Positions 3,936 through 5,772 of a DNA stretch of 64,000 nucleotides are shown here, one piece after another. Each line of letters starts with the position of its first letter. Position 1 is the stretch's first letter. The position numbers were made by a program, and so were the translations under genes. The notes under the pieces were generated by a model. That model was not told the DNA's origin. It ran no database searches and saw only the letters and a list, made by a program, of their open reading frames with translations. Origin of the DNA: a phage; the sequence record OZ470804.1; one strand, written 5' to 3'.

Positions 3936-4297
3936 AATGACCTCAAAGTTATATTAAATTTTGTATTACATTGAGTATAAAAATAAGCTATAACACCTGA
4001 CTTGTCAACAGATTTTATAGCTTATTTGGCAGATTTTTTATAAGGCTACTGCCATCCTTCCATACCGAACCGTGCCTAACCTGACCATGCCACACCTTAC
4101 AATACCAAACATTACTTAAAAACCCTCTTAGAAGACTCTTAAGTGATGTAATCGAATTTTAATGTAGCTCCGATTAACTACCCATACCTGACCAGACCTT
4201 GCCAAACCTTACCTCACCCAACTACACCGAACCTCATTAAAAGACCCTCTTAAAAGACCTTTTAAAAAGGAGCCTCCGAAGAGGCTACCTAGTCAAC
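3936..4297. repeat. structured intergenic leader, copy 1 (paralog of 5344-5772)
   Basis: shares modules GGCAGATTTTTTATAAGGCTACTGCCATCCTTCCATAC, TTTTAATGTAGCT-loop hairpin and C/A-rich G-poor tracts with the second copy. Confidence 0.7.
4262..4287 (-). terminator. intrinsic terminator (minus strand)
   Basis: hairpin AGCCTC-CGAA-GAGGCT with A-run on plus strand (T-run on minus) just downstream of ORF 4298-4738. Confidence 0.55.
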
Positions 4298-4738
4298 TTA
4301 GAAAGGTTTTCTACGTTGCTTGTTAATGTTAGCTTTCATAGCAGCTAAATGGTTTTGCTGTTCAATCAGTCGTGAACGTTCTTGATGACTAAGCGCCATA
4401 GTGTTCACATTCTCAATTGCTTGAGTGGCTTGCTTTAAAGCTCGACCAATCTTACCAGACATTTTGCGTTTTGCAATAGTTGCTTGATGCTTAGGTTCAA
4501 CCACACGATAACCAACACCCATTGAAGCAACCAGATAAATCTTCTCTTCTTTAAGAAGCTTTTCAATAAACTTCTCAAGTCGGTTTAGACGTGTAAGTGC
4601 ATAAGCCTTCATTTCATCTTCGTACTTAACAATGTCGCCTTGATAAGTTGGCTTCACAATACCTAAGAAGGTATCCATCTCAGAGTGTGATACAGTGTCA
4701 CCGTAACTAAACTTTGCTGCTAATGCTTTTGTATTCAT
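4298..4738 (-). CDS. hypothetical protein
   Basis: 146 aa ORF. Confidence 0.5.
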   Translation of the reverse strand: MNTKALAAKFSYGDTVSHSEMDTFLGIVKPTYQGDIVKYEDEMKAYALTRLNRLEKFIEKLLKEEKIYLVASMGVGYRVVEPKHQATIAKRKMSGKIGRALKQATQAIENVNTMALSHQERSRLIEQQNHLAAMKANINKQRRKPF

Positions 4739-4740
4739 AA

Positions 4741-5343
4741 TTAAACGTTACCTTCTGAAATAACTTCTACAGAAAAACGACCAAAGCGTGGACGCCAATC
4801 ACCTACACCACAAAGGTTACCAGCATTTTCCAGAACCATCAAGAGTTCTTCTTTGGTGATTTGCTCTTCATCGAACATCAAACCAAACTCTACAGACCAA
4901 TCACGGAAGATTGGACGGTAGCTCATAACTCGTGCTGTACCAATCTTAACAGATTTAGCATAGATAAAATCTGGATTCTTAGCAAGTTCTTGTGGGTTTG
5001 CTGGACAGTTCTTGATAGTCATTGGGAAGACTACATCTGTCAGCATAATAGCTCGGTCAATTACCTTACCAAGTTTGTTGAGTTTTGCACCAGACTTGAT
5101 ACAAGCCTCAATCATCTCACCGTTCATAACAAAACCTAGCTGCTCATCGTAGTAACAAGAAGTCACCAGTTGACTTTCTGCTAAGAGCGCATAATCTTCG
5201 TCAGTCTTTTTACGTTTACTGGACAGAGACTTGTGATATTTTGTCAGAGGGTTTAATGGGTCTGACAACGTATCGTTATGGCTCAAGAAAGGACGAGTAC
5301 CAGTGATTTTGATATTTAGCAGTTTCATAGCATTTAGCTCCAC
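4741..5343 (-). CDS. hypothetical protein
   Basis: 200 aa ORF, tightly packed with upstream gene. Confidence 0.5.
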
Positions 5344-5772
5344 ACTTTAGTTGATTGTTAATTTGTTTGTAAAGAACCCTCAACAGAAGACTCTTTAGAA
5401 ACTTGGCAGATTTTTTATAAGGCTACTGCCATCCTTCCATACATTACCAAACAGTACTGTGCCACAACACACCATACCCAACCCCACCTAACTCTACCAC
5501 ACCTCATTAAAAGACCTTGTTTAAAGACCTTTTAAAAAGGTAAGTCTCATTTTAATGTAGCTGAGACTAACTACCCTTACCAGACCTAGCCTTGCCTTAC
5601 CATACCGTACTTTACCTTACCGTACCGTACTTTACCCTACCGTACCGGACAATACTTAACCCGACCTCGCCCTACCGGACATCACTTAAAAACCCTTTTA
5701 AAAGACTCTTAAGTGATGCTGGTGAGTACCCGTTGGTTTATGCTGCTCAGTATACTCACCAAATTTTCTATG
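5344..5772. repeat. structured intergenic leader, copy 2, with pentamer-type TACCG/TACTT/TACCT tandem repeats
   Basis: same modules as 3936-4297; CCTTACCATACCGTACTTTACCTTACCGTACCGTACTTTACCCTACCGTACC tract at 5600-5660. Confidence 0.7.
5533..5568 (-). terminator. hairpin with T-run inside leader (possible attenuator)
   Basis: AGTCTCA..TGAGACT stem with conserved loop TTTTAATGTAGC, plus-strand A-run 5534-5538. Confidence 0.35.

Follow-up and report, generated by a model that had tools for sequence, protein, structure and literature searches.

VIPR (Viral Interference Programmable Repeat) systems consist of Vipr, which is a minimal RAMP protein with an RRM core, a G-loop, and a thumb, an accessory gene (vap), and vrRNAs, in which 9-16 YNNGG repeats are followed by an invariant tail that contains a pseudoknot in the SUSP1 clade (10.64898/2026.04.26.720920, 10.64898/2026.04.26.720927). 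In SUSP1-infected cells, small RNA sequencing and pull-down revealed vrRNAs of ~100 nucleotides (nt) that are recovered together with Vipr (10.64898/2026.04.26.720920, 10.64898/2026.04.26.720927). Each repeat is bound by one Vipr protomer with the GGY triplet flipped out, and cryo-electron microscopy (cryo-EM) shows Vipr reading G, G, and Y (10.64898/2026.04.26.720927). The NN dinucleotides pair with double-stranded DNA, with every third target base skipped, and an R-loop triplex results; in SUSP1, target binding represses transcription (as seen in GFP and plaque assays), vap1 enhances this effect, and most natural targets of the SUSP1 clade lie in a satellite phage carried by E. coli genomes (10.64898/2026.04.26.720920, 10.64898/2026.04.26.720927). 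Here we consider a stretch of 64,000 nt from a Felix O1-like phage (Ounavirinae; sequence record OZ470804.1), referred to below as the window, of which positions 4028-5776 on the minus strand constitute, with a probability that we put at roughly 93%, a type II VIPR locus. The feature as such is already known from the 2026 preprints and a PDB entry, the locus falls within the SUSP1 clade of type II systems, and every defining feature that can be checked in silico was found.

The order of parts in the locus is promoter, vrRNA-A, vrRNA-B, vipr, vap1, terminator, vrRNA-C, vrRNA-D, so that each of the two intergenic regions, which are flanked by open reading frame (ORF) boundaries at 3935, 4298, 5343, and 5773, holds two vrRNA genes. 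The 195-amino-acid (aa) product of vipr (4741..5328, minus strand; the ATG at 5328 is a likelier start than that at 5343) is Vipr as judged from its sequence, and by homology it is a RAMP-family protein with the GGY repeats of vrRNAs as its ligand. Over its full length of 195 residues it shares 98% identity with PDB 36pp_D, the 'SUSP1 Vipr protein' (E 6e-128), and a profile search of the Vipr family also finds PDB 36pp (E 3e-80). The RNA and DNA contact residues named from the cryo-EM structure (H17, K33, R39, K82, R138, D177, W178, R179) are all present in the window protein, as is the G-loop motif, and an AlphaFold (AF2) model (pLDDT 94.9) resembles the RAMPs Csm3, Cas7, and Cas6, with Foldseek E-values of ~1e-4 to Csm3/Cas7. 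Vipr proteins form a large family for which Pfam has no domain and whose members are annotated as nothing more than hypothetical. The adjoining 146-aa ORF (4298..4738, minus) shares 99-100% identity with the gene that immediately follows vipr in SUSP1 (the SUSP1 genome itself is locus L017 of our collection) and in its relatives; since that gene was named vap1 in the preprint, we assign the ORF as vap1, the putatively DNA-binding vipr-accessory protein. Its product belongs to PHROG family phrog_5926, and no Pfam match was found for it.

Beyond the two proteins, the window and SUSP1 have the same neighbours (the DNA ligase gene upstream; 127-aa, 70-aa, and helix-turn-helix (HTH) genes downstream), the same GGY/NN repeats with a pseudoknot tail and the same tail types, and the same kind of target, namely an E. 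coli satellite with tape-measure and baseplate genes that is matched under the rule of one skipped nucleotide. They differ in the arrangement of the vrRNAs (two plus two in the window, one upstream and three downstream in SUSP1), in the guide sequences, one of which has 20 matching dinucleotides in the window as against the published 9-16 repeats, and in the tail of the vipr-proximal vrRNA, which is AAGG/GGCAG in the window and GTGG/GGTAG in SUSP1.

The backbones of class 1 CRISPR-Cas effectors (Cas7/Csm3) offer a more distant comparison. Both have a RAMP fold, one protomer for a fixed stretch of guide, and a thumb that flips bases periodically, and in both the guide carries a conserved structured handle and competing mobile elements are targeted. 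Unlike these effectors, VIPR uses a non-contiguous guide, in which two of five RNA bases pair with two of three DNA bases, and it is phage-encoded and operates without a protospacer-adjacent motif (per the preprint, 10.64898/2026.04.26.720920, 10.64898/2026.04.26.720927). Neither a CRISPR array of direct repeats and spacers, nor cas1/cas2, nor other cas genes were found at the locus, and the neighbouring proteins had no Cas families. The locus is therefore not a member of CRISPR-Cas and has only the RAMP fold in common with it.

The first feature of the DNA that calls for explanation is its strict periodicity. An earlier note on this stretch had pointed to C/A-rich tracts with pentamer repeats in both intergenic regions, and this was borne out: all four tracts have a strict 5-nt period, which reads NNGGT on the minus strand, and the TACCG/TACTT pentamers that had been singled out are the local face of this general period. 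The lag-5 identity of the tracts is 0.50-0.77, as compared to a window mean of 0.24 (standard deviation 0.06), and elsewhere in the 64 kb no segment reaches 0.55. The 2.7 kb around the locus is 91-94% identical to many Felixounavirus genomes, and the corresponding locus was retrieved for 20 relatives (L001-L020; ~92% identical overall). Over the 1173 pentamers of the window and these relatives, the three constant positions are G in 83%, G in 92%, and T in 86% of cases, with C as the main substitute for T. Among the relatives, the promoter, the hairpins before the tracts, and the tail elements after them are nearly invariant. Within the tracts, GGT and the 5-nt phase are kept, while both N positions differ almost completely despite the ~92% overall identity, and a region may hold one, two, or three vrRNA units. 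This pattern of conservation argues against a folded leader and points to a periodic reader of GGY that leaves NN free.

Each vrRNA gene opens with a 5' hairpin, continues with 9-20 guide dinucleotides that alternate with GGY triplets, and closes with a covarying 3' pseudoknot, all on the minus strand; the tracts measure 12, 13, 15, and 24 pentamers. In vrRNA-A, the hairpin (5679..5719; start motif GAGTCTT..GGGTTTTTAAG) is an inverted repeat with a 19-bp stem in the minimum-free-energy fold and abuts the first repeat of the tract (5582..5678), in which 20 guide dinucleotides (CC..CT) have GGY-like triplets between them. The tail pseudoknot (5543..5581) pairs GTAG:CTAC and AGTCTCA:TGAGACT, both helices covary, and a U run follows at 5534-5538. 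The hairpin and start motif of vrRNA-B (AAAAGGTCTTTAAACAAGGTCTTTTAATGA, 5504..5538) precede a tract of 12 guide dinucleotides (5444..5503; GT AG TA GG TG AT GT GT AC AC TT AA) and a tail pseudoknot (5405..5443; AAGG:CCTT and GGCAG:CTGCC), where relatives have GTGG:CCAC and GGTAG:CTACC. In vrRNA-C, the hairpin and start motif (4234..4268) are followed by 9 guide dinucleotides (4189..4233; TC GT TG GA AA TT AA CT CA) and a tail (4150..4188) with GTAG:CTAC and AATCGGA:TTCGATT. The hairpin of vrRNA-D (4109..4149) is again an inverted repeat that abuts the first repeat, its tract (4067..4108) has 9 guide dinucleotides (TT AT AA GT AT CA TA AC TC), and its tail (4028..4066) has the helices of vrRNA-B, AAGG:CCTT and GGCAG:CTGCC. 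The vrRNA-B and vrRNA-D tails lie in an exact 40-nt repeat (4026-4065 = 5403-5442), which contains GGCAG..CTGCC and of which zero would be expected by chance.

This repeat is one of three modules shared between the two regions, which are paralogous and lie where the earlier note had placed them; the other two are a GCTACATTAAAA element at 4157-4168 and 5550-5561 and a third common hairpin at 4110-4149 and 5679-5718. The stems that flank GCTACATTAAAA are unlike and complementary (ATCGGA/TTCGAT in one copy, AGTCTCA/TGAGACT in the other), in agreement with the compensatory changes that had been proposed for them. The description of this element as a hairpin with a conserved loop was correct as to its existence and incomplete as to its shape: it is not a loop alone, since its CTAC pairs with an upstream GTAG, which makes the element a pseudoknot.

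Covariation across related phages, which had been suggested as a check, was scored on 15 distinct tails. Helix a occurs as GTAG:CTAC, AAGG:CCTT, and GTGG:CCAC, and helix b as AGTCTCA:TGAGACT, AATCGGA:TTCGATT, GGCAG:CTGCC, and GGTAG:CTACC. Pseudoknot pairs are formed in 90.9% of cells, as compared to 29-41% when the partners are slid, and 9 of the 11 pairs change on both sides. Both helices covary: the 4-bp helix a is paired in 100% of cells with three covarying pairs, and helix b in 86% with six. The tail also includes G-U pairs that are valid only in minus-strand RNA. The elements are strand-specific, and the G/U-rich minus strand, which the earlier note had taken as the transcribed one, is the functional strand.

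These observations bear on the possibility that the regions act as DNA, for instance in replication (as an origin), in packaging, in recombination (as a hot spot), or as iterons to which a DNA-binding protein attaches. Such a role would fit the fast change of unit copy number between relatives, the 40-nt exact repeat between the regions, which shows recent recombination, and the deletion of vipr and vap1 by recombination between the regions in some phages. We nevertheless hold it to be extremely unlikely. In this phage as in unrelated ones, the arrays always run in the same sense as the flanking genes, the tail G-U pairs have meaning only in RNA, a likely genome-end or repeat-rich region lies elsewhere (47154-48157), and the recombination more plausibly follows from the modules being repeated than explains what they are for. 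Primase sites, a plus-strand Rho rut site, an origin or pac site, a quadruplex, and a TRAP-like ring were also considered, and none of them explains the NN code or the linkage to a RAMP protein.

The hairpins upstream of the tracts share a bipartite start motif (GTCTT..GGGTyTTT), and the 3' base of the hairpin abuts each repeat tract. On the minus strand the motif stands at 4109-4149, 4234-4268, 5369-5395, 5504-5538, and 5679-5719, and nowhere else in the 64 kb; the copy at 5369..5395 (AAGAGTCTTCTGTTGAGGGTTCTTTAC) is a fifth one, located just upstream of vipr and conserved in relatives. The conserved hairpin with its start motif may be a vrRNA processing or promoter element, and the 5' hairpins may define the vrRNA 5' ends; no discussion of either the motif or the hairpin was found in the text of the VIPR preprint. 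A boxA-like antitermination (nut) role for GGTCTTTAA before the arrays was dropped, as the motif is confined to the locus and forms the hairpins that abut the arrays. Long-range pairing of UUUUAAUG in the start motif with CAUUAAAA in the tail loop was likewise dropped, as loop variants in L003 and L004 appeared uncompensated by eye.

The earlier note had favoured ~400-nt structured leaders, with attenuators and cis-regulatory RNAs among the possible roles, and the regions could accordingly be read as cis-acting elements, be they attenuators, translational operators, or riboswitch-like, through which the minus-strand genes downstream are controlled. Both regions do lie upstream of genes on the same strand, the one before vipr comes after a strong promoter, and each has a more stable fold than its shuffled versions (z -3.7 and -4.1). 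However, the excess folding energy stems from the 5' hairpins and the tails and not from the repeat tracts, and the arrays after vap1 lie between an intrinsic terminator (4264..4289, minus; GGTAGCCTCTTCGGAGGCTCC + T5) and the promoter of the next gene (TTGACA-17-TATTTT; 3974..4027, minus), which is outside VIPR and marks the end of the locus. Because these arrays are upstream of that promoter, they fall outside the 5' untranslated region of the next gene and cannot be its leader. Near-identical phages differ in unit number from 1 to 3 per region, the tracts vary most at the very places that a regulatory structure would have to keep constant, and a permissive Rfam scan of 3500-6200 gave only two chance-level hits and no family match. 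The information of the tracts lies in the variable dinucleotides, which find their match in foreign DNA, that of a satellite, by a rule unrelated to the adjacent genes (see below). We consider a leader function very unlikely. The regions are better described as pairs of separate guide-RNA genes, whose partner Vipr is encoded between them, and the tracts are not structured in the sense proposed, as the repeats do not pair with each other and each is bound by one Vipr protomer (10.64898/2026.04.26.720927). A small RNA, which had also been offered among the possible roles, is what remains of that proposal, in the form of four vrRNA guide genes.

To find the DNA matched by the guides, the satellite was located by blastn with a SUSP1 gene that the preprint says the satellite shares. 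It was present in 474 of 5426 E. coli genomes, and each island that was fetched is a ~11-12-kb element with flanking serine recombinase genes and with tape-measure and baseplate genes. On ten such islands, 39 of the 73 distinct guides of the window and its relatives reached an NN match of >=85% when one nucleotide was skipped, as compared to only 2-4 of the 73 with skips of 0, 2, or 3, and 38 of the 39 hits at >=85% fall inside the satellite island. The four window guides follow the same rule, and neither skips of 0, 2, or 3 nor shuffled guides attain their scores. Guide A (20 NN) matches 39/40 and 38/40 positions in islands L149 and L142, respectively, for a maximum of 28 when the order of NN is shuffled, and in L142 the matched stretch is part of a satellite ORF, where the NN pairs cover codon positions 1-2 and the skipped base is the wobble position. 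Guide B (12 NN) matches 23/24 and 22/24 on orphan vrRNA genes of the satellites in L149 and L147 (shuffle maximum 20). Guide C (9 NN) matches 17/18 in L150 and 16/18 in L143 and L149 (shuffle maximum 16), its target being a small ORF upstream of the tape-measure gene. Guide D (9 NN) matches 18/18 in L142, L143, and L147, which none of 1000 shuffles equalled (shuffle maximum 16). No self-targets were found in the window at >=80%, and the best self matches were at 62-79%.

Several searches in this part of the work were negative. An exact-pattern search with guide B gave 0 hits in viral_contigs and 0 in genome_contigs, and its target surfaced only on the fetched satellite islands with mismatches allowed. 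The first five satellites had no guide B target, no vrRNA arrays, and no Vipr, and a BLAST search with the whole locus against the 5426 E. coli genomes for satellites with a similar VIPR locus gave no match.

Independent information on the link between arrays and protein came from a scan of IMG/VR for (GGTNN)6GGT, which was made before the protein had been identified. Besides microsatellites, it returned 56 loci of unrelated viruses with heterogeneous NNGGY arrays. Many of these are super-arrays, with up to 18 units of 9-19 pentamers separated by short punctuation, and they are always sense to the flanking genes. At ~31 of the 56 loci an adjoining homologue (20-40% identity) of the 195-aa ORF of the window is encoded, from which we conclude that arrays and Vipr form a conserved pair. 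The punctuation of super-arrays differs between contigs that each encode a Vipr homologue (L118 3230-4392, L040 2214-3404, L046 11516-12038, and L030 3393-3841); the types seen were 18 units with AGTT between them, units with TTAATGAATTTAAT between them, and staggered units with a 1-nt phase shift.

We also asked how far GGU-rich tracts might be explained without Vipr, be it as TRAP-like (GAGNN)11 sites or sponges for an RNA-binding protein that forms a ring or a filament, as two-tetrad G-quadruplexes, or as G-rich transcripts that resist Rho or promote R-loops. A precedent is TRAP on the (G/U)AG repeats of the Bacillus trp leader, where an oligomer reads a trinucleotide ~11 times at a 5-nt pitch on unstructured RNA and leaves the spacer dinucleotides free; the 5-nt period and the 11-13 repeats per unit resemble such a site. 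In addition, GGNNN repeats could build two-tier quadruplexes, and the plus strand is C-rich, G-poor, and rut-like. TRAP differs in forming a closed ring of an unrelated fold that acts in cis and for which the spacers are uninformative, whereas Vipr forms an open helical filament. A TRAP-type site was rejected, given that the triplet is GGY and not (G/U)AG and that the linked protein is a RAMP; moreover, the phage region and E. coli have no TRAP homologue (no Pfam or PHROG hint). More generally, explanations that dispense with Vipr do not tell us why U/C is conserved after GG, why the hypervariable NN fit the DNA of a satellite with a pitch of 3 nt, or why there is tight linkage with a RAMP protein across unrelated phages, while cryo-EM shows Vipr itself reading G, G, and Y (10.64898/2026.04.26.720927). 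They appear exceedingly improbable to us.

There are also points that weigh against the assignment of 4028-5776 as a type II VIPR locus. Expression, processing, and Vipr binding of the window RNAs are taken wholly from homology to SUSP1, to which the window itself adds only the conserved promoter and the 5' hairpins. Ten islands were scanned out of the 474 satellite-bearing genomes, and guide C is the weakest of the four, as 7 of 1000 shuffles reach 16/18 on five islands. The vrRNA-A tract, with 22-24 pentamers, is beyond the published range of 9-16, and several triplets of vrRNA-A and vrRNA-B are AGU, UGU, or GUU instead of GGY (six of those in vrRNA-A are AGU or UGU). Since the structural paper reports pockets specific for G, G, and a pyrimidine (10.64898/2026.04.26.720927), some protomer positions on such triplets may bind poorly. 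Furthermore, vrRNA-C and vrRNA-D sit past an intrinsic terminator and no recognisable sigma-70 promoter of their own was found, just as no such promoters for individual vrRNAs were found inside the arrays. Finally, the covariation of the tails rests on only about four or five independent tail types.

The target of guide B sets it apart from the other guides. In the satellites it consists of the last repeats and the tail of the orphan vrRNA gene (L149 6844-6878, L147 5132-5166). The same guide matches the tail of the vipr-proximal vrRNA in 20/20 relatives, ~84 nt upstream of vipr, at 20-23 of 24 positions (L001-L020, near locus position 2291), including 21/24 on the GTGG/GGTAG tail of SUSP1. 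The vipr-proximal vrRNA of the window has the other tail type (AAGG/GGCAG), within the 40-nt repeat that contains the GGCAG..CTGCC hairpin flagged in the earlier note, and because of this the best self match of guide B is only 19/24, on the vrRNA-C tail at 4158-4192 (coordinates converted from an offset). Guide B and the AAGG/GGCAG tail are conserved in at least 12 phage records. Taken together, we tentatively suggest, at somewhat less than even odds, that vrRNA-B is an anti-VIPR guide, whose 12 dinucleotides match other vrRNA genes in the DNA that encodes their last repeats and their pseudoknot tail of the GTGG/CCAC type. A Vipr filament at the vipr-proximal tail would then block the vipr-vap1 operon of a competitor, and the window phage would avoid hitting itself through the other tail type on its own vipr-proximal vrRNA. 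An anti-VIPR guide was not found in the text of the VIPR preprint, in which targeting of VIPR by VIPR is reported only for the Pseudomonas fulva clade (10.64898/2026.04.26.720920, 10.64898/2026.04.26.720927).

Guide B also occurs in phages that have vrRNAs and no vipr. In the Salmonella phages MBP4696116, NBSal004, and SWJM-02 (L152 2750-3200, L153, and L154), the locus comprises the ligase gene, the promoter, two vrRNAs including guide B, and the 127-aa gene, and neither vipr nor vap1 was found in it; a search of the whole MBP4696116 genome (OP515798.1; L155, L152, L156) also gave neither gene. By tblastn, Vipr was found in ~118 Ounavirinae records, as compared to 222-259 records that matched the intergenic regions, and so roughly half of these phages may carry orphan vrRNAs. 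Under the anti-VIPR proposal, such phages could load the Vipr of a co-infecting relative with a guide against that relative's own system. Two of the ten E. coli satellite islands likewise carry a single vrRNA gene (L147 5158-5222 and L149 6870-6924, minus strand), with 13 and 11 repeats, respectively, and a phage-like tail that shows a further compensatory stem variant (GTCG:CGAC); no Vipr homologue was found in these islands. The guide of the L149 satellite vrRNA gave no hit. That of L147 matches 20-22 of 24 positions at chromosomal sites just past mdoH or torZ in other E. coli strains (L148 825-859, L151 1561-1595, L143 1154-1188, and L144 652-686), and these sites may belong to some extragenic element that is repeated. 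Orphan vrRNA genes, be they from satellites or from Felix O1-like phages without vipr, resemble the pseudo-ToxI repeats of phages and mini or orphan CRISPR arrays, which are also non-coding repeat RNAs of mobile elements directed against competitors, sometimes without a cognate protein. The chemistry and the proteins differ, and loading of orphan vrRNAs by Vipr in trans is putative.

Around the locus all genes are on the minus strand. Upstream of vrRNA-A, vrRNA-B, vipr, and vap1 stands a sigma-70-type promoter (TTGACA-16-TATACT; 5749..5776, minus) that agrees with the consensus at 11 of 12 positions and is conserved in all relatives, vipr-less phages included. A hairpin (GGTGAGTA..TACTCACC; 5722-5761, minus), also conserved in relatives, overlaps the -10 hexamer of this promoter and could therefore form only in read-through transcripts. 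Between the promoter and the DNA ligase gene (5961-7100, minus) lies a 62-aa ORF (5773-5961, minus) with a basic, Cys-rich product; this slot varies, being occupied by a small hydrophobic ORF in some relatives and by none in others. On the other side, a 127-aa ORF (3552-3935, minus) encodes a secreted-looking protein, and the -35 hexamer of its promoter is bracketed by a 19-nt inverted repeat (AAATAAGCTATAA..TTATAGCTTATTT). This arrangement, within 3974-4027, has the look of an operator, on which the HTH regulator encoded at 3046-3375 may act. Far from the locus, a 1-kb non-coding stretch between convergent gene blocks (47154-48157) is rich in TGTTAAGA / CTTGTTAG-type repeats with periods of 11, 12, 24, and 31, and, judged by hit coordinates, the GenBank records of several relatives seem to begin or end near it; this stretch may be a genome terminus, a packaging region, or an origin.

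By analogy with SUSP1, the promoter at 5749-5776 would transcribe vrRNA-A, vrRNA-B, vipr, and vap1, and individual vrRNAs would be released. Vipr would polymerise on the repeats and be capped by the pseudoknot, and the resulting complexes would bind satellite DNA and block its transcription. In a satellite-bearing host, guides A, C, and D would thus silence satellite genes and guide B the vrRNA gene of the satellite, and this silencing would stop the satellite from parasitising the phage.

VIPR is a recently described form of RNA-guided DNA recognition with a non-contiguous code, and it has been proposed as an ancestor of CRISPR effector backbones. Its signal is recognisable from raw sequence, in the form of four strict-period tracts that flank a small basic protein, and public genomes sufficed to reproduce the published targeting rule, with no recourse to the data of its authors. 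The 5' hairpins, the guide of 20 dinucleotides, the conserved guide aimed at a tail, and the widespread orphan vrRNA genes in vipr-less phages are leads that go beyond the preprints. If they hold true, conflict between phages would include guide-only parasites and anti-VIPR guides.

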